This document shows, piece by piece, positions 307-9,981 of a stretch of 10,347 nt of DNA (its first letter is position 1; each line of letters opens with the position of its first letter). Position numbers and translations under genes: made by a program. This DNA comes from a virus (lineage: Duplodnaviria > Heunggongvirae > Uroviricota > Caudoviricetes): IMG/VR virus record IMGVR_UViG_2529293213_000037, one strand, 5' to 3'. The notes beneath the pieces are model-generated. The model did no database searches and was not told where the DNA came from. It saw only the letters and a list, made by a program, of their open reading frames with translations.

Positions 307-498
307 TTAAAGTCCTGCCGGTATTTCGTTATTATTAGTGTGAGTAGTTTTATCTACCGGATAACAGTTACCGGGAATTTTTTGTTCTGCTGCTGCAGCC
401 ATGCATTCTTTCATTGAACCGTATAAGCCAGTCACCAGCTCAAGAGATTCGCCGGAAACAAGATAAACTGTCAGAACGAGTGCAAATGTTGTATTCAT
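307..498 (-). CDS. ydfD: Small membrane protein, YdfD-like (63 aa; Qin-type lysis protein family)
   Basis: 63-aa ORF with an N-terminal hydrophobic segment (TTFALVLTVYLVSG). Its ATG overlaps the stop of the upstream DicB-like gene (ATGA overlap at 495-498). AAGGA Shine-Dalgarno 8 nt upstream. Size and position immediately after dicB match YdfD from memory. Confidence 0.6.
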   Translation of the reverse strand: MNTTFALVLTVYLVSGESLELVTGLYGSMKECMAAAAEQKIPGNCYPVDKTTHTNNNEIPAGL

Positions 499-683
499 TG
501 TTTATATCCTTTTTGCAGCAGGTCCAGACGAGCCAGCATTGAAGGAATGCATACTTCATTTAACAGGTCCTGCTCGAGTTTTCTCTGCTTAATGGCGTCT
601 TCAATAAATGTTTTGTCTCCAGTGATAACGCCAATTTCGAAACGAAGTTCAGACGTGCTGGCATTACATGATAACTTTTCCAT
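495..683 (-). CDS. dicB: DicB-like cell-division inhibitor (62 aa, MinC-activating family)
   Basis: Internal ATG at 683-681 with GAGGA 7 nt upstream gives a 62-aa product (MEKLSCNASTSELRFEIGVITGDKTFIEDAIKQRKLEQDLLNEVCIPSMLARLDLLQKGYKQ) that matches DicB as I recall it (FEIGV, FxEDAIxKRK, SMLARL). The longer 98-aa ORF in the track has no RBS and is probably an upstream extension artefact. It lies about 180 bp downstream of the DicF-like RNA. Confidence 0.7.
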   Translation of the reverse strand: MEKLSCNASTSELRFEIGVITGDKTFIEDAIKQRKLEQDLLNEVCIPSMLARLDLLQKGYKQ

Positions 684-863: not shown

Positions 864-920
864 AAAAAGGGCGGCAGAGCAGTTACGGAGTAAAACTGAT
901 ACCGCCAAATGTCACCAGAA
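864..920 (-). ncRNA. dicF: DicF-like small RNA (ftsZ-targeting sRNA of the dicB operon), including its intrinsic terminator
   Basis: The minus-strand sequence AUUCUGGUGACAUUUGGCGGUAUCAGUUUUACUCCGUAACUGCUCUGCCGCCCUUUUUU matches my recollection of DicF with about 3 mismatches. It ends in a GC-rich stem plus U-tract. Ends are approximate (+/- 3 nt). Confidence 0.7.
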
Positions 921-1479: not shown

Positions 1480-1632
1480 CTATTGTTGAACTGGATTAAA
1501 CCAGTAATTCTCTATTGCTCTTATTGTTACCATCGGATGATTGCCGGGGGTTATTTTAAGTTCGGGAGGAAAAGGCTCTCCATCAGCAGCCATCATTGAG
1601 TATGTGAAATCCGCCGACGCAGTCCCTTTCAT
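1480..1632 (-). CDS. Either a 50-aa translationally coupled small ORF or the C-terminal part of the frameshifted upstream gene
   Basis: ATG at 1632-1630 overlaps the upstream stop (ATGA). The same frame is open upstream back to about 1838 without an ATG, which suggests a fusion with 1629-2018 after a -1 shift. Product ...MKGTASADFTYSMMAADGEPFPPELKITPGNHPMVTIRAIENYWFNPVQQ. Confidence 0.35.
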   Translation of the reverse strand: MKGTASADFTYSMMAADGEPFPPELKITPGNHPMVTIRAIENYWFNPVQQ

Positions 1633-2018
1633 GATAATTCCGAATTTTTCAAGTAATGAGAGCAGTTCCGGTAATCCTGTGTCATCTGAATAACTTTCCT
1701 CATAGAAAGAAGCGATTGCCGCAGGAGATGACAGTTCTCGCTCTGCAATTTTTTTGTAGTTTTCCAGAATTCTTTTTTTGAATACTTTTCCTCGACATGA
1801 AAACCCATCACCGAGGCAATCCGCTTTGCAGTTTCTTCAGTATTCTGGTTGTTTGTTACCGAAACAGAGTACAATCCGGTAAACGCATCGCGCACATTAC
1901 GAGCCATATTATCAATGTATTTCTTCGTTGCAGATTCTAATTCAACTTCGTTCAGACGTTGGTGAAGTGCATGTGCTGCAATTTCCTGGATTTCTTTTAG
2001 TAAATCTTTAAATTCCAT
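1629..2018 (-). CDS. Hypothetical early-left operon protein at the ydfC position; annotated frame of 129 aa, but probably frameshifted at an A7 tract
   Basis: ATG at 2018 with GGAG 7 nt upstream. N-terminal part (MEFKDLLKEIQEIAAHALHQRLNEVELESATKKYIDNMARNVRDAFTGLYSV...) looks like real coding. After the A7 run (minus strand of 1773-1779) the annotated frame uses rare codons (AGG, CGG x2) while the -1 frame stays open to 1480 and reads more protein-like. Confidence 0.55.
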   Translation of the reverse strand: MEFKDLLKEIQEIAAHALHQRLNEVELESATKKYIDNMARNVRDAFTGLYSVSVTNNQNTEETAKRIASVMGFHVEEKYSKKEFWKTTKKLQSENCHLLRQSLLSMRKVIQMTQDYRNCSHYLKNSELS

Positions 2019-2029
2019 CTTTAACTCCG

Positions 2030-2158
2030 TTAGTCGTTAGATTTTGCCGAACTGGAAAGCGCCTGTTTAAACTCACTGAAGCTGAGAGCTTCCTCGCCTT
2101 CGGCAAGGCCTTCGAAGTATTCTTCGTAAGCCTTTTCCATGATTGTGTCGAAATCCAT
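2030..2158 (-). CDS. ydfB: YdfB-like small protein (42 aa)
   Basis: ATG at 2158-2156, one nt after the ydfA-like stop. Product MDFDTIMEKAYEEYFEGLAEGEEALSFSEFKQALSSSAKSND. Below the 60-aa cut-off of the ORF track. Size (42 aa) and position match YdfB of the Qin dicB operon. Confidence 0.5.
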   Translation of the reverse strand: MDFDTIMEKAYEEYFEGLAEGEEALSFSEFKQALSSSAKSND

Positions 2159-2159
2159 A

Positions 2160-2315
2160 TCACTCACCTGAGTTTCTTTCCAGCCAGCGACGGGCACCAT
2201 TTTCGGTTTTAAACGTTTTGCTTTTGGTATACGTCATCGCGGTGAATGTACCGTCCTGGTTGGGAAACACGCCGTACACCAGAGATTCGTTGTTGCCAAG
2301 ATCGATAGTATCCAT
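2160..2315 (-). CDS. ydfA: YdfA-like small protein (51 aa)
   Basis: ATG at 2315-2313 with GAGGT 4 nt upstream. Product MDTIDLGNNESLVYGVFPNQDGTFTAMTYTKSKTFKTENGARRWLERNSGE. First gene after the second operator/promoter. Size and position match YdfA. Confidence 0.6.
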   Translation of the reverse strand: MDTIDLGNNESLVYGVFPNQDGTFTAMTYTKSKTFKTENGARRWLERNSGE

Positions 2316-2501
2316 GTTGACCTCATTTCCCCTTAACGCCGGGTAGCGGAACAAAAACCTGCTGCATAGTTATTAAAGTTGAACCCTGCCGTCATGTTCA
2401 TACGCCTCGGGCTGGCTACTTACCCCCTGACCACTGCTTGGTAACTCGAAGTATTGCCCGGCGTTCTGTGGGGCGGGGTGGGTGGTTGGTGTATGTAATC
2501 T

Positions 2502-2540
2502 ACAATAAAAAACTGTTTTTGTGTCAACAGTTTTTAATTG
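2502..2540. promoter_or_regulatory. Operator-like palindrome (second copy) overlapping a consensus -35 TTGACA on the minus strand; candidate repressor-controlled promoter of the dicB-type operon
   Basis: ACAATAAAAAACTGTT-(spacer)-AACAGTTTTTAATTG. The left arm is identical over 16 nt to the site at 3537-3552. The revcomp of 2522-2527 is TTGACA. It lies just downstream of the ParE terminator and about 190 nt upstream of the ydfA-like gene. Confidence 0.5.
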
Positions 2541-2550
2541 TTGTTTTGGG

Positions 2551-2574
2551 CAAAAAAATCCCTCGAAAGAGGGA
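2551..2574 (-). terminator. Rho-independent terminator ending the repressor-antitoxin-toxin operon
   Basis: Minus-strand hairpin UCCCUC-UUUC-GAGGGA followed by U7 (revcomp of A2552-A2558), about 20 nt after the ParE stop. Confidence 0.55.
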
Positions 2575-2592
2575 GTATGAAAATTGTTCAAC

Positions 2593-2880
2593 TCAGATAG
2601 AGAAGGGAAATTGTCGCCGAGAATGTGTCACGCTTACAATCTCAATGCTTGAAGCAGCTACTCTGTACAGGATTATGTAGTTAGGGTGGGTCACGATCTC
2701 TCTCAATCCAGAAACCCGTTCGCTTGGTGGATATAAGTACGGATGCTCAGATAGAGGTAATACCGATGTTTCAATGCGTATTTTTAGTCTACGTGCTGCC
2801 GGTGGGTTCTCCTTGGCGATGTAAGTTATGATCTGGCGCAAATCATCGCGAGCAGACGGTAGCCATAAAATGGGTAACAT
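2593..2880 (-). CDS. parE: ParE/RelE-superfamily toxin (95 aa), type II toxin-antitoxin system
   Basis: Product MLPILWLPSARDDLRQIITYIAKENPPAARRLKIRIETSVLPLSEHPYLYPPSERVSGLREIVTHPNYIILYRVAASSIEIVSVTHSRRQFP... has the ParE-family hallmarks. Its start overlaps the stop of the upstream antitoxin gene by 1 nt (TAATG). Confidence 0.8.
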   Translation of the reverse strand: MLPILWLPSARDDLRQIITYIAKENPPAARRLKIRIETSVLPLSEHPYLYPPSERVSGLREIVTHPNYIILYRVAASSIEIVSVTHSRRQFPFSI

Positions 2881-3071
2881 TACTCGCTCTTGTTAGTTAC
2901 AGCAATTTGAGCAATAAGATTTTCCATTTCAGCCATTACCTCGTCATGTGGAATTGCGGGGCGAGTGTCTGCAAGGCTTGACGTTACTTTAGTGCGCAAC
3001 CATTCGTTGTAACTGTTTTCTTGTTCGGTAGTTTCGAATTCTGAAACTATCGGAGAAAGGGCTGTACCCAT
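2880..3071 (-). CDS. paaA: Antitoxin (63 aa) of the three-component ParE system, PaaA-like
   Basis: Product MGTALSPIVSEFETTEQENSYNEWLRTKVTSSLADTRPAIPHDEVMAEMENLIAQIAVTNKSE. GAGGAG Shine-Dalgarno 7 nt upstream. Sits 27 nt after the repressor stop and is directly coupled to the ParE gene. Size and sequence resemble the PaaA2 antitoxin from memory. Confidence 0.7.
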   Translation of the reverse strand: MGTALSPIVSEFETTEQENSYNEWLRTKVTSSLADTRPAIPHDEVMAEMENLIAQIAVTNKSE

Positions 3072-3098
3072 GGCATAACTCCTCTTCTTGTACTGTGG

Positions 3099-3500
3099 TC
3101 ACGCCCGGCGGCTTTTTTGTGCCGCCAGCCACCTAGCAATGGTTTCTTCCATTGATTTTTTCTTGTCTTTGATTTCTTGAAGCATTTTTTCTTGGTCTTC
3201 CTCAGGAAACGCACTAAAAGCTTGGAGCAGTTCGCGTTGGCGAGGACCAATTTTCATCGTGTCAGGGGTGAAAATTTGCTCACACTCTTCAGGAGGCAAT
3301 AAAAACCAATGCAATGGATGCCCTGAAACCTCAACCAGTTTATCCAAACTTGAGGCTTTAGGTGTAGCCTTACCGCTGACCCATTGTTGAACAGTTTGTT
3401 GTGTCACACCAATTCTACGGGCAAGCTCAGCCTGGCTCCATCCAGTTTCCTGAAGAAGCTTGCTGATTCTGTACATAGATACTTCTAGGGCGCTCATCAT
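3099..3500 (-). CDS. XRE-family HTH repressor (DicA/RacR/PaaR-like, 133 aa); probable prophage immunity repressor and regulator of the TA operon
   Basis: N-terminal HTH (QAELARRIGVTQQTVQQWVSG) and a C-terminal domain resembling DicA. Divergent from the Cro-like gene. No Shine-Dalgarno before the ATG, and a TAAAAT -10-like hexamer sits about 7 nt upstream, so it may be leaderless. Confidence 0.8.
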   Translation of the reverse strand: MMSALEVSMYRISKLLQETGWSQAELARRIGVTQQTVQQWVSGKATPKASSLDKLVEVSGHPLHWFLLPPEECEQIFTPDTMKIGPRQRELLQAFSAFPEEDQEKMLQEIKDKKKSMEETIARWLAAQKSRRA

Positions 3501-3608
3501 TATTCAATTTTACAGGTAAATACTGTTAAAAGCATCACAATAAAAAACTGTTGATTGCATACAGTTTTTTATTGTAGGTTTTGCTTATAGTTTTTAGAGG
3601 AGGGCAAA
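3501..3608. promoter_or_regulatory. Divergent promoter/operator region between the repressor and the Cro-like gene; perfect 14-bp inverted repeat at 3538-3574
   Basis: CAATAAAAAACTGT-(9 bp)-ACAGTTTTTTATTG is a perfect palindrome. TATAGT -10-like hexamer at 3586-3591 on the plus strand and TAAAAT on the minus strand. Confidence 0.6.
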
Positions 3609-3881
3609 ATGCTAGATAGCACTCGCGAAAAAATTAGGCAGAAATACACTCAGGCTGAAATAGGTCGTTATATGGGGGTCGCTCAACAGACTGTTTGGCA
3701 ATGGTTTAGCTTTGGCGTTCCCCCAAAGCAGGTAATTCCGTTATGCCAACTAATGAAGTGGGAAGTTACCCCGCATGAAATCCGCCCAGATATTTATCCT
3801 AACCCAACCGACGGTTTACCTGTTGGATGTAAGGTTAACACATCAAATGCGCCGGAGTTGATTCATGAAAATCAAGCATGA
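3609..3881 (+). CDS. ydaS: Cro/CI-type HTH protein, YdaS-like (90 aa)
   Basis: GAGGAGGG Shine-Dalgarno. HTH (QAEIGRYMGVAQQTVWQWF) followed by the WEVTPHEIRPDIYPNPTDG motif typical of the YdaS family. Overlaps the downstream gene by 17 nt. Confidence 0.75.
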   Translation: MLDSTREKIRQKYTQAEIGRYMGVAQQTVWQWFSFGVPPKQVIPLCQLMKWEVTPHEIRPDIYPNPTDGLPVGCKVNTSNAPELIHENQA

Positions 3882-4290
3882 ACACATCCGCATGGCGATG
3901 AATGCCTGGGCGCATCCGGACGGCGAAAAAGTACCGGCTGCGAAAATTACCAAAGCGTATTTCGAGCTGGGAATGACGTTCCCGGAACTGTATGACGACA
4001 GCCATCCGGAAGCCATGGCTCGCAATACTCAGAAAATTTTCCGCTGGGTGGAGAAAGACACTCCTGATGCGGTTAAAAAAATTCAGGCGTTGTTACCAGC
4101 GATCGAAAAAGCGATGCCGCCTCCGCTGGTGGCCCGAATGCGCAGCCACAGTTCCGCTTATTTTCGGGAGTTGGTAGAGACGAAGGAACGGCTGGTGAAA
4201 GATATTGATGATTTCGTTGCATCAGCGATCGTTCTGTTCGATCAGATGAATCGTGGTGGCCCGGCAGGAAACACTCTGGCTGTGCATTAA
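3865..4290 (+). CDS. ydaT: YdaT-like protein (141 aa), the partner of YdaS in Rac-type prophages
   Basis: Starts MKIKHEHI..., with GGAG 7 nt upstream. Co-oriented with and overlapping the ydaS-like gene. Family assignment is from memory. Confidence 0.65.
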   Translation: MKIKHEHIRMAMNAWAHPDGEKVPAAKITKAYFELGMTFPELYDDSHPEAMARNTQKIFRWVEKDTPDAVKKIQALLPAIEKAMPPPLVARMRSHSSAYFRELVETKERLVKDIDDFVASAIVLFDQMNRGGPAGNTLAVH

Positions 4291-4303
4291 TTGGGTAATA
4301 AAT

Positions 4304-9221: not shown

Positions 9222-9825
9222 GCGTTCTCCCCATGAGCATTAAAGGATGCTTAAGATATGCTATGTCACTGATAAAAAATTTGTTGTGTGTGTTTAGTTA
9301 TTTTATCTACCTCCATTATGATTTAAGACTGATATATGTTATCAGCAAAGGTACATCGTTATTATTTTACCTGTCAATACATTTGATATTGATTATCGTT
9401 TACATCGCTTGCTTAGGAAATTGAAGGCAGGTAACTATCATGTCAATGAACTAACCCACAGTCTAACGTACTTCTTTCCCCAATCACCAACAACCAAATT
9501 CCTGTTATCACCACTGGGATTTTGGCGCAACTTCATGGTGCAGAGGTAAATAGCATCAAGCAAAATCTCTTTTTCCGTTGTTGTCCTTATGGGACGTCTG
9601 TCTTTCTGACCGATTTCATATTGGCGAGGTAATGGGAAGTTAAGTAGAATAGCTGCGGGTGCTTGAGGCTATCTGCCTCGGGCATGAACACCAACGGCAG
9701 ATAGAGAAAAGCCCCAGTTAACATTACGCGTCCTGCAAGACGCCTAACATTAATCTGAGGCTCAATCTATGAACGGCAAATCTAGGTTAGCCTCTTACGT
9801 GCCGAAAGGCAAGGAGAAGCAGGCT

Positions 9826-9981
9826 ATGAAGCAGCAAAAGGCGATGTTAATCGCCCTGATCGTCATCTGTTTAACCGTCATAGTGACGGCACTGGTAACG
9901 AGGAAAGACCTCTGCGAGGTACGAGTCCGAACCGGCCAGACGGAGGTCGCTGTCTTCACAGCTTACGAACCTGAGGAGTAA
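9826..9981 (+). CDS. hokD: Hok/Gef-family type I toxin (51 aa), closest to HokD (RelF)
   Basis: Product MKQQKAMLIALIVICLTVIVTALVTRKDLCEVRVRTGQTEVAVFTAYEPEE, about one substitution from HokD as I recall it. AAGGAG upstream. The track ORF (from 9769) is an in-frame N-terminal extension. No relBE-like ORFs upstream. Confidence 0.8.
   Translation: MKQQKAMLIALIVICLTVIVTALVTRKDLCEVRVRTGQTEVAVFTAYEPEE

Follow-up and report, generated by a model that had tools for sequence, protein, structure and literature searches.

Putative right and left operator clusters of a lambda-type immunity region around the repressor operon of prophage Sp4 in E. coli O157:H7

In phage lambda, the repressor operon and its non-essential cargo lie between OR, with the promoters PR and PRM, and OL, with PL. 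The cI mRNA made from PRM is leaderless, and OL and OR are about 2.4 kb apart. The operators of phage 434 are 14 bp long (ACAA-N6-TTGT), come in three-operator clusters and are common to repressor and Cro. In the 434 co-crystal structures, Gln28, Gln29 and Gln33 of the repressor contact the bases, and the A/T-rich operator centres are without direct contacts. A three-component toxin-antitoxin operon, PaaR-PaaA-ParE, was reportedly described by Hallez et al. in 2010. For CP-933P, where the right cluster consists of OR1-3, PaaR2 and YdaS footprint OR and repress the left promoter PL933P about 100-fold (Jurenas et al. 2021, mBio, PMC8630535). PaaR2 octamerises like CI (PMC8630535), and paaA2-parE2 replace rexA and rexB (PMC9986795). 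In prophage Qin, DicA represses dicBp 22-fold and the transcript starts upstream of ydfA (PMC10448788); for dicA-dicC and dicBp see also Bejar et al. 1988, as cited in PMC10448788, and Yun et al. 2012 (PMC3441716).

The window, by which we mean the whole 10,347-nt (10.3-kb) stretch of DNA analysed here, is the early-regulatory region of the lambda-like prophage Sp4 of E. coli O157:H7. An earlier note on this DNA had described two palindromic operators on either side of a repressor and toxin-antitoxin cassette. We think it very probable that they represent OR and OL, the operator clusters of a lambda-type immunity switch of the usual kind. The arrangement is classical, and Sp4 is a new instance of a principle already known from lambda, 434, Qin and CP-933P. 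For the Sp4-type immunity region we can now give a definite operator sequence, a map of the operators and an arrangement of the promoters. This immunity type is present in about 510 of 5,426 complete E. coli genomes, O157:H7 among them, and appears to be uncharacterised so far. A literature search on PaaR1, ECs1067-1070 and paaA1 brought up nothing specific to the Sp4 locus, and a megablast of 2440-3620 against deposited phages did not find the immunity region, the sole matches being 47-55 nt at the leader end. The genes and their associated features are as follows.

869-920: DicF (76.9 bits), in the leftward operon, where dicB is also annotated
2030-2158: ydfB-like gene, after the DUF1391 gene and followed by a 129-aa ORF
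2160-2315, minus strand: DUF1391 (YdfA-like) gene, first gene of the leftward operon and next minus-strand gene after the predicted PL
2316-2490, minus strand: conserved leader of the predicted PL transcript, upstream of the ydfA-like gene
2559-2574, minus strand: intrinsic-terminator-like hairpin with T7 after the ParE stop, end of the repressor-antitoxin-toxin operon
2593-2880, minus strand: ParE-family toxin, 95 aa (PF05016, E=2.9e-17)
2880-3071, minus strand: PaaA-family antitoxin, 63 aa (PF21217, E=5.6e-19)
3099-3500, minus strand: repressor, 133 aa (Sakai ECs_1069; presumed PaaR1), with an N-terminal HTH_3 domain and recognition helix TQQTVQQ
3609-3881, plus strand: YdaS-family Cro analogue, 90 aa, with recognition helix AQQTVWQW, close to that of the repressor
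3858-3875, no strand: site at the ydaS/ydaT junction that agrees exactly with the operator of the CII analogue YdaT (TTGATT-N6-AATCAA)

Exact copies of the 16-mer ACAATAAAAAACTGTT are found on the plus strand at 2502-2517 and 3537-3552, each with an inverted partner, just as the earlier note said. On the left the partner is at 2526-2541 and has 1 mismatch. On the right it is at 3560-3575, again with 1 mismatch over the 16-mer; the 15-nt arms 3537-3551 and 3561-3575 are 100% complementary. Allowing up to 3 mismatches gave 4 matches where 0.17 were expected, a number reached in none of 200 shuffles. The two sites match each other for longer when inverted (20 nt at 95%; 18 nt at 94%) than when direct (16 nt), and the spacer between the arms is 9 nt in the right site and 10 nt in the left. 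Judged by its sequence, each palindrome arm is a complete 15-bp operator with the pseudo-dyad ACAR-N7-YTGT. This motif has 5 matches in the window, where 0.59 would be expected, and every one belongs to one of the two sites; none of 200 shuffles had as many, and the same five are the only ones in 30 kb of Sakai. The sites of the earlier note are real, but each should rather be seen as a pair of neighbouring 15-bp operators, and a third unit on the right had been missed. The right-hand units are spaced 25 and 24 bp apart. Only two units are recognisable on the left, compared with the three OL operators reported for lambda, 434, CP-933P (OL1-3) and Qin. The operators and the predicted promoters that they overlap are listed here.

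2497-2527, minus strand: predicted PL, with TTGACA (2527..2522), a 19-nt spacer and TAGATT (2502..2497); hexamers conserved in nearly all subtypes
2502-2516, no strand: OL1-like operator, read on the minus strand as ACAGTTTTTTATTGT, identical to OR1, between PL -35 and -10
2527-2541, no strand: OL2-like operator, read on the minus strand as ACAATTAAAAACTGT, with a final T that also opens PL -35
3500-3512, minus strand: predicted PRM, with -10 TAAAAT (3512..3507), 6 nt, and ATG at 3500; assigned from the sequence, with a weak -35
3512-3526, no strand: OR3-like operator ACAGGTAAATACTGT, overlapping PRM -10
3537-3551, no strand: OR2-like operator ACAATAAAAAACTGT, ending in the T with which PR -35 begins
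3551-3580, plus strand: predicted PR, with TTGATT (3551-3556), an 18-nt spacer and TAGGTT (3575-3580); hexamer positions conserved across subtypes
3561-3575, no strand: OR1-like operator ACAGTTTTTTATTGT, filling the spacer between PR -35 and -10, at a fixed -75 from the repressor ATG in 46 loci

For conservation we used IMG/VR viral contigs because species-representative genomes gave too thin a sample: a scan of these with the repressor found only one relative, in Arsenophonus. The IMG/VR set gave 46 E. coli-type loci (45 and the window), all with the same recognition helix. In these loci three units precede the repressor gene, at -75, -51 and -26 relative to its ATG, and a further two lie downstream of the repressor operon; stray ACAR-N7-YTGT matches are rare, only 7 in 323 kb. 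This 3 + 2 layout is kept in all 45 IMG/VR loci and the window, and also in the Arsenophonus prophage. The Arsenophonus repressor is 44-48% identical to that of Sp4, with an identical helix (GVTQQTVQQW). Its motif copies are in the gap between repressor and cro and directly after the repressor stop, around TTGACA, and the locus has no toxin-antitoxin genes. Across the 46 loci the spacing between half-sites is N7 without exception. The spacing between OL2 and OL1, in contrast, can be 23, 24 or 25 bp (24 bp in 35 of 46 loci; 25 bp, as in the window, in 8 of 46), and because it varies while the half-site spacing is constant, we take the unit to be the 15-mer and not the 39-bp palindrome.

On the right, the divergent repressor (3099-3500, minus strand) and YdaS-type HTH gene (3609-3881, plus strand) are separated by a 108-bp gap that holds three units, as in a lambdoid immunity region. 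We infer repressor binding and promoter activity at the Sp4 sites from the sequence and by analogy with the systems described above. One dimer of the 133-aa repressor probably binds each 15-bp unit, and since the recognition helix of the YdaS-type Cro analogue is near-identical to that of the repressor, this protein probably binds the same units. The three right units would overlap the divergent promoters PR and PRM, with OR1 in the PR spacer. OR2 would adjoin PR -35 and could serve in PRM activation: relative to the predicted start of PRM it is centred at about -45, a position of the activator type. OR3 would overlap PRM -10, just upstream of the repressor start. This -10 is only 6 nt from the repressor ATG, and we therefore predict a leaderless repressor mRNA that would start at 3500, which is 1,168,363 in Sakai; for CP-933P, a leaderless paaR2 has been shown. 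The PRM sequence CCTGTAAAAT is kept in all E. coli-type loci, and TATAAT is found in Arsenophonus. The predicted PR would start near 3587, which is about 1,168,450 in Sakai, and drive the ydaS-like cro gene and ydaT. Its -10 is poor, TAGGTT in the window and TAGGCT in Sakai (C at 3579).

The second cluster of the same motif lies beyond the repressor operon, at 2502-2541, around an outward-facing TTGACA/TAGATT pair. The earlier note had placed it at a TTGACA -35 on the minus strand, directly after the ParE terminator and upstream of the ydfA-like gene, and all three points agree with what we find: TTGACA is present on that strand at 2527..2522, the hairpin and T-run are at 2574..2559 on the minus strand, and the next minus-strand gene encodes the DUF1391 protein. 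The predicted PL, which would start near 2490, about 1,167,353 in Sakai, has its -35 beginning with the last T of OL2 and its -10 with the last T of OL1. Since the operators are interdigitated with the promoter in this way, repressor bound at OL1 and OL2 would occlude RNA polymerase. PL would transcribe the ydfA-ydfB-...-dicF-dicB operon, and the candidate lies directly upstream of DUF1391-ydfB-...-dicF-dicB, as in the Qin layout. Its position is that of PL933P in CP-933P and of dicBp in Qin. Across subtypes the PL hexamers are conserved and the operator centres and flanks diverge. The proposal of the earlier note that one repressor controls both the divergent immunity promoters and the promoter of the dicB-type operon thus gains support from sequence (a motif confined to two places, the layout in 46 loci, and conserved hexamers interdigitated with the left operators) and from the precedents of CP-933P and Qin (PMC8630535, PMC10448788).

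A consensus promoter scanner called no promoter at either operator site in the window, and for this reason we base our assignment of PR and PL on their conservation and on what the scanner gave for one relative, L006, in which TTGACA-18-TAGATT is called at 10/12. Most relatives have this 18-nt spacer; with one extra A, the 19-nt spacer of the window is non-optimal. Together with the poor PR -10, it means that PL may be weak in this cryptic prophage. A stronger version would be that the operators are genuine but the left promoter of the window is a decayed relic, disabled by a 1-bp insertion, so that OL/PL no longer drives the dicB-type operon and at most provides an extra place for repressor binding or looping. 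In favour of this, the scanner picks up PL in L006 and misses it in the window, the 25-bp OL2-OL1 spacing is that of the minority, and Sp4 is one of many O157 prophages and is regarded as defective. Against these points, both hexamers are intact (TTGACA 6/6), promoters with 19-nt spacers are still able to fire, and the operon downstream (ydfA-like, ydfB, DicF, dicB) is intact. We consider a relic promoter unlikely.

The repressor of Sp4 is a short one. Pfam gives only HTH families for it and its C-terminus is helical; because the RecA-stimulated, self-cleaving (S24 peptidase-like) C-terminal domain is absent, we class it with DicA and PaaR and not with lambda CI. The C-terminal helical domain is homologous to those of PaaR2 and DicA. 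Identity to PaaR2 is 42% over residues 37-133, mostly in the C-terminal 45 aa, and the N-terminal DNA-binding region does not align; we presume that the Sp4 protein is the paralogue PaaR1. Identity to DicA is 28%, with a common C-terminal motif. In the PDB, the best phmmer matches were chains of the phage 434 repressor (E=3e-5), with TQQTVQQ aligned to TQQSIEQ, and the Gln-Gln-x-x-x-Gln pattern of the recognition helix lines up with that of 434. A single-sequence AlphaFold model (pLDDT 80.6) matched generic XRE HTH proteins in a fold search, which ranked the 434 repressor only 19th and found no match for the C-terminal helices, so we base the link to 434 on sequence and on the operator ends. 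Those ends are alike (ACAA...TTGT in 434, around A/T-rich centres), the sites are predicted to be shared by repressor and Cro as they are in 434, and both have three-operator clusters. However, every Sp4-type unit at OR and OL is 15 bp (N7) and not 14 bp, which makes the 434 docking analogy imperfect, and the C-terminal domain of the Sp4 repressor is of the PaaR2/DicA type and, unlike that of 434, is not RecA-cleavable.

OR1 is the reverse complement of OR2, and the OL allele found most often is likewise a perfect palindrome but another one, with the matching change on both arms. One tentative and on balance doubtful reading is that the mirror symmetry of adjacent operators is selected: the PaaR/DicA-type C-terminal domain would bring 434-like DNA-binding domains together in a tetramer or octamer with two-fold symmetry. 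Such a complex would recognise two 15-bp sites as an oriented pair and form a loop of about 1 kb between OL and OR. If this were so, the toxin-antitoxin cargo would be strictly tied to the lysogenic state and the immunity module would be self-addictive. We rejected each palindrome as one 39-bp tetramer site: OR3 stands alone, the spacing between units is 23-25 bp while that within units is constant, and diverged OL pairs are not mirror images.

The palindromes, 39-40 bp long, could also act as an RNA hairpin or terminator or as a DNA cruciform and not as protein-binding sites. Both form hairpins far more stable than those of shuffled controls, at -14.2 kcal/mol (z -4.6) and -16.9 kcal/mol (z -5.0), the left palindrome of L006 with its T-rich tail was flagged as terminator-like on the strand opposite PL, and mirror identity of OR1 and OR2 persists in three subtypes (15, 14 and 13 of 15). 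But the stems are almost wholly A/U, OR3 has no partner, and in diverged subtypes OL mirror identity falls to 9-12/15, the background level, while the ACAR/YTGT ends are kept. Moreover, transcripts from PL and PR would not include the hairpins, which precede both predicted start sites. We regard a structural role as very improbable. Separately, the PL leader was considered as a structured RNA and dropped: the RNAalifold covariation term was unfavourable, only three pairs had compensatory changes, and Rfam gave no match even at E<=1.

The operators do bracket the toxin-antitoxin cassette, in that it lies between them, but what they bracket is the whole repressor operon, like lambda OL and OR around cI-rexAB; it is not a feature of the cassette. 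The antitoxin lies immediately upstream of the toxin, with its stop and the toxin start sharing position 2880, and matches PDB chains of PaaA2 (E=1.4e-20) without being identical to them. Only 27 nt separate repressor and antitoxin, with a single terminator after parE. Located between the repressor gene and the operon terminator, the pair would be expressed with the repressor in the lysogenic state. Among relatives, the genes between the repressor and OL are PaaA1/ParE1, PaaA2-like/ParE, none, or unrelated proteins of 120 and 134 aa, and in a cassette-less locus (L042) the terminator hairpin directly follows the repressor. Because the 3 + 2 layout is kept while these genes vary, we assign the operators to the immunity module and the toxin-antitoxin genes to its cargo, which is in the position of lambda rexAB. 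The "three-component" PaaR-PaaA-ParE module would then be a prophage repressor operon with swappable cargo. The same variation makes it highly implausible that the palindromes are autoregulatory operators for a PaaA-ParE complex, as in conventional type II systems. A review does report partial repression of the paaR promoter by PaaA-ParE (PMC4803016), and sites are found on both sides of the cassette, but operators are at the same positions in loci with unrelated cargo or without toxin-antitoxin genes, PaaA2 has no detectable DNA-binding motif (PMC8630535), and the left site is downstream of the cassette terminator and faces away.

As an immunity region, Sp4 is close in build to the paralogous prophage CP-933P (Sp12). 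Gene order is the same (PL/OL, parE, paaA, repressor, OR, ydaS, ydaT), and homology extends to antitoxin, toxin, ydaT, the PL leader and the C-terminal domain of the repressor. The YdaT site of Sp4 fits the consensus in PMC9986795 exactly, and CP-933P has a leaderless repressor start (predicted in Sp4) and a repressor-controlled PL downstream of parE (which Sp4 probably shares). The repressor DNA-binding domain, cro and all operators are unrelated, with TTTAGT-type repeats in place of ACAR-N7-YTGT. In the alignment of the two prophages, the parE/paaA/repressor C-terminal region and PL leader are homologous, whereas different sequences stand in for the DNA-binding domain, OR and cro, and for OL as well, despite its homologous flanking DNA. 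Qin has TGTTAG-type sites at OR as well as OL. Sequence comparison thus indicates that operators change together with repressor specificity.

Mosaic joints are normal at immunity-region borders in lambdoid phages. The two sites are mutually inverted over 18-20 nt and CP-933P homology breaks close to both, yet we give next to no credence to their being terminal inverted repeats or recombination scars, about 1 kb apart, of a repressor-toxin-antitoxin cassette that is mobile: the segment between them lacks a transposase or recombinase and has no flanking direct repeats, each unit has dyad symmetry of its own, the 3 + 2 copies are phased at ~24 bp and interdigitated with conserved -35 and -10 hexamers, the cargo changes while the sites stay, and such border joints are expected (also raised in PMC8630535).

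Qin resembles Sp4 in its short repressor without peptidase domain (DicA). Its repressor operon is directly followed by a promoter that serves ydfA-ydfB-ydfC-dicF-dicB and has an operator between -35 and -10 (TTGACC-17-TAATCT), as predicted for PL of Sp4. Qin differs in having no cargo between dicA and dicBp and no long conserved leader, and its operator (Oc) is of the TTGTTAGTCATAACTAACAA type, distinct from the Sp4 sequence. Lambda has the same order of repressor operon and cargo between OR and OL, and its leaderless cI start resembles the one predicted for Sp4, but the protein families differ and we see no N gene where the Sp4 leftward operon begins. OL and OR of Sp4 are about 1.0 kb apart, and with a PaaR2-like C-terminal oligomerisation domain the repressor could possibly loop them together.

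Up to 10073 the window aligns colinearly with prophage Sp4 ("lambda-like phage") of E. coli O157:H7 Sakai and differs from it at just two bases (3579 and 8799); the alignment is lost from about 10074. Nucleotides 2000-4300 are 100% identical to many O157:H7 genomes. The features that matter here are:

about 495-683, minus strand: dicB
869-920, minus strand: DicF, in the leftward operon (Rfam, 76.9 bits)
1629-2018, minus strand: 129-aa ORF
2030-2158, minus strand: ydfB-like gene
2160-2315, minus strand: DUF1391 (YdfA-like) gene
2559-2574, minus strand: terminator-like hairpin and T-run, 3' of the ParE stop
2593-2880, minus strand: ParE toxin
2880-3071, minus strand: PaaA-family antitoxin
3099-3500, minus strand: repressor, 133 aa, HTH_3 (ECs_1069, annotated "phage repressor protein")
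3609-3881, plus strand: YdaS-family HTH protein (Cro analogue)
3865-4290, plus strand: YdaT
9657-9831, plus strand: sok antitoxin RNA at the window's right end, beside a hokD-type gene (Rfam, 105.6 bits)

The antitoxin resembles PaaA2 of prophage CP-933P but is not identical to it, and published primers show that PaaR2 begins differently from the window repressor. We infer that the operon is paaR1-paaA1-parE1, the other paralogue.

The earlier note described an identical 16-mer at two sites, each with an inverted partner, and exact matching and a shuffle test bear this out. ACAATAAAAAACTGTT occurs exactly at 2502-2517 and 3537-3552; its inverted partners lie at 2526-2541 and 3560-3575. Allowing up to 3 mismatches, the window has 4 matches where 0.17 would be expected, a number that no shuffle reached. 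The repeat finder gives the right site 15-nt arms (3537-3551 and 3561-3575) that are 100% complementary with 9 nt between them, and the left site one arm mismatch and 10 nt between arms. The minus-strand TTGACA (2527..2522) is also where it was said to be, at the left copy, after the ParE terminator (hairpin 2574..2559) and 5' of the ydfA-like gene. Aligned as inverted copies, the two sites share longer stretches (20 nt at 95%, 18 nt at 94%) than as direct copies (16 nt only), which points to one promoter-operator module present twice in divergent orientation.

Both palindromic sites are real, but their arms are separate 15-bp units, pseudo-dyads of the form ACAR-N7-YTGT, and a further unit at 3512-3526 had been missed. 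There are five matches in the window against 0.59 expected, a count reached in 0 of 200 shuffles. Three, 25 and 24 bp apart, form the right cluster, OR, in the repressor-cro gap (3512-3526, 3537-3551 and 3561-3575), and two form the left cluster, OL (2502-2516 and 2527-2541). In 30 kb of Sakai sequence the motif occurs only at the same five sites. The OR regions of lambda and 434 also have three operators.

We scanned IMG/VR with the window repressor and obtained 46 loci; L049 and L003 are one and the same Arsenophonus contig, which leaves 45 E. coli-type loci. A search with the 15-bp pattern finds the three-plus-two layout in all 45 and the window, three units standing at -75, -51 and -26 relative to the start codon of the repressor and the other two 3' of the repressor operon. 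Stray matches number only 7 in these 323 kb, the spacing between half-sites is always N7, and unit-to-unit spacing is invariant in OR and 23, 24 or 25 bp in OL. Half-site position 5, left free in the search pattern, is T or G only. Diverged subtypes (repressors 91%, 80% and 68% identical) have altered operator centres and flanks and keep the ACAR/YTGT ends. The Arsenophonus prophage repressor is 44-48% identical and has a recognition helix, GVTQQTVQQW, identical to the window's; there the motif is found between repressor and cro and a second time, 40 bp past the repressor stop, around TTGACA. With the motif confined to both clusters and the layout kept in relatives, these comparisons support, with the refinements described, the idea that one repressor would serve both the divergent immunity promoters and the dicB-operon promoter.

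The left cluster reads OL2-TGAC(A/G)...OL1-AGATT in all examined subtypes except L003 (TAAATT) and L041 (TAGTTT). The -35 of the predicted leftward promoter PL starts on the last T of OL2, and its -10, TAGATT, on the last T of OL1. The spacer is 18 nt in most relatives, and L006 scored 10/12 with the promoter scanner. In the window, one extra A between OL2 and OL1 (2517-2526) makes it 19 nt, as in 8 of 46 loci, and the consensus scanner did not call PL with this spacer. We think it unlikely that PL has decayed in the window allele. The predicted rightward promoter PR is laid out in the same way (TTGATT, 18 nt, TAGGTT), and its putative -10 has T at 3579 in the window and C in Sakai Sp4 (TAGGCT). 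For the repressor promoter PRM, the first base of the predicted -10, TAAAAT (minus strand, 3512..3507), is the last base of OR3; this element is kept in all related loci (TATAAT in Arsenophonus). Because it ends 6 nt before the repressor ATG at 3500, we predict a leaderless repressor mRNA; lambda cI mRNA is leaderless. OR2 is centred about -45 from the predicted PRM start, and lambda CI activates PRM from such a position. In CP-933P, a leaderless paaR2 mRNA has been demonstrated (PMC8630535).

Reverse-complemented, OR2 agrees with OR1 at all 15 of 15 positions in the window type, at 14 in L045 and at 13 in L046, and the centres vary by subtype. At OL, the allele seen most often (33 loci) is again a perfect palindrome but of another sequence, both arms carrying a matching change; among loci L004-L048, OL pairs of diverged subtypes are not mirrored. 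It is very improbable that the palindromes act as structural hairpins: both fold well, but the stems are almost all A/U and the diverged OL pairs are complementary no more than background. The symmetry could come from selection for a two-fold symmetric complex or from quasipalindrome template-switch homogenisation. This exact mirroring of adjacent operators is the one mildly curious feature of what is otherwise ordinary lambdoid immunity architecture.

We compared the slot from the repressor to the terminator/OL, which in L042, L044, L045 and L046 lies some 400-1300 nt past the start codon of the repressor. It holds PaaA1/ParE1 in the window type, a PaaA2-like/ParE pair in L044, an unrelated 120-aa protein (sub-threshold EACC1 match) in L045, an unrelated 134-aa protein in L046-L048, and no cargo in L042, L043 and Arsenophonus; in L042 the same terminator hairpin is directly 3' of the repressor. 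Since the cargo varies and the sites stay, the operators bracket the repressor operon and the toxin-antitoxin (TA) pair is cargo. The cassette does lie between the clusters, as had been noted, but the sites are kept in loci without any TA genes, which also makes it hardly credible that they are autoregulatory sites of the TA complex. Transposon-type terminal repeats are just as implausible, fitting poorly with three plus two phased dyads interleaved with promoter hexamers and with cargo turnover inside fixed sites. Lambda has rexAB in this slot, and the CP-933P authors likewise see paaA2-parE2 in place of rexA/rexB (PMC9986795).

By BLAST, Sp4 and CP-933P share about 70% homology over 2326-3164 (from the PL leader through parE and paaA into the 3' part of the repressor gene) and about 88% from the YdaT site onward (3854-4290); the stretch 3165-3853, which holds the repressor DNA-binding domain, OR and cro, finds no match in CP-933P. 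Within the homologous block, the OL/PL segment has undergone local replacement, and homology is back at ACCAACCCACCCC, just past the -10. The heterologous block is thus exactly the DNA-binding domain, OR and cro, plus the OL patch. CP-933P has TTTAGT-type repeats at both OR and OL in contrast to ACAR-N7-YTGT, and prophage Qin has TGTTAG-type sites at both: the experimentally defined Oc, TTGTTAGTCATAACTAACAA, at OR and TGTTAGTCATGGCTAA, between TTGACC and TAATCT, at OL. The operators thus vary with repressor specificity, each of the three immunity specificities having its own motif in both clusters.

Over its C-terminal 45 residues the repressor closely resembles PaaR2 and, recognisably, DicA of Qin, and the N-terminal DNA-binding domains of the window repressor (3099-3500) and PaaR2 (L002, 3501-3872) are unrelated. 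The protein is modular, with a PaaR2-like C-terminus on an unrelated DNA-binding domain. PaaR2 octamerises, like CI (PMC8630535); given the similar C-terminus, OL-OR looping over the 1,035 bp between clusters is plausible. In the AlphaFold model (pLDDT 80.6) the N-terminus forms a five-helix HTH domain, followed by a linker modelled with low confidence and by a C-terminal helix-turn-long-helix; a fold search with the model returned generic XRE-family HTH proteins and no match for the C-terminus. Among solved structures, sequence comparison places 434 repressor chains first (E=3e-5), and in the alignment TQQTVQQ falls opposite TQQSIEQ. In 434, OR and OL each have three 14-bp operators of the form ACAA...TTGT, whose A/T-rich centres are not contacted; the Sp4-type unit differs in being 15 bp, and the system would work like that of 434. 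The Cro analogue has a near-identical recognition helix (AQQTVWQW), consistent with operators shared by the two proteins.

We found nothing in the literature on operators of the Sp4-type locus. For two homologous prophages, CP-933P and Qin, the hypothesis of the earlier note is the accepted model. In CP-933P, PaaR2 and YdaS footprint the intergenic region, and a PL933P fragment 3' of parE2 is active in a GFP fusion, where either protein represses it about 100-fold (PMC8630535). In Qin, DicA represses dicBp by a factor of 22, transcription of dicBF begins 5' of ydfA, and a likeness of the operator clusters to lambda OR and OL has been pointed out (PMC10448788).

At 3858-3875, spanning the ydaS stop and ydaT start, TTGATTCATGAAAATCAA exactly fits the published operator of YdaT, the CII analogue (TTGATT-N6-AATCAA; PMC9986795). 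From this match, a PRE-type establishment circuit is probably present in the Sp4-type prophage too.

The predicted PL transcript has a leader of ~180 nt (window 2316-2495, minus strand; L002 4483-4650; L003 4510-4640). It is strongly conserved among Sp4, CP-933P and the Arsenophonus prophage and mostly absent in Qin, with no Rfam match and no covariation support. At its 3' end is a short, variable upstream ORF starting ATGACGGCA.
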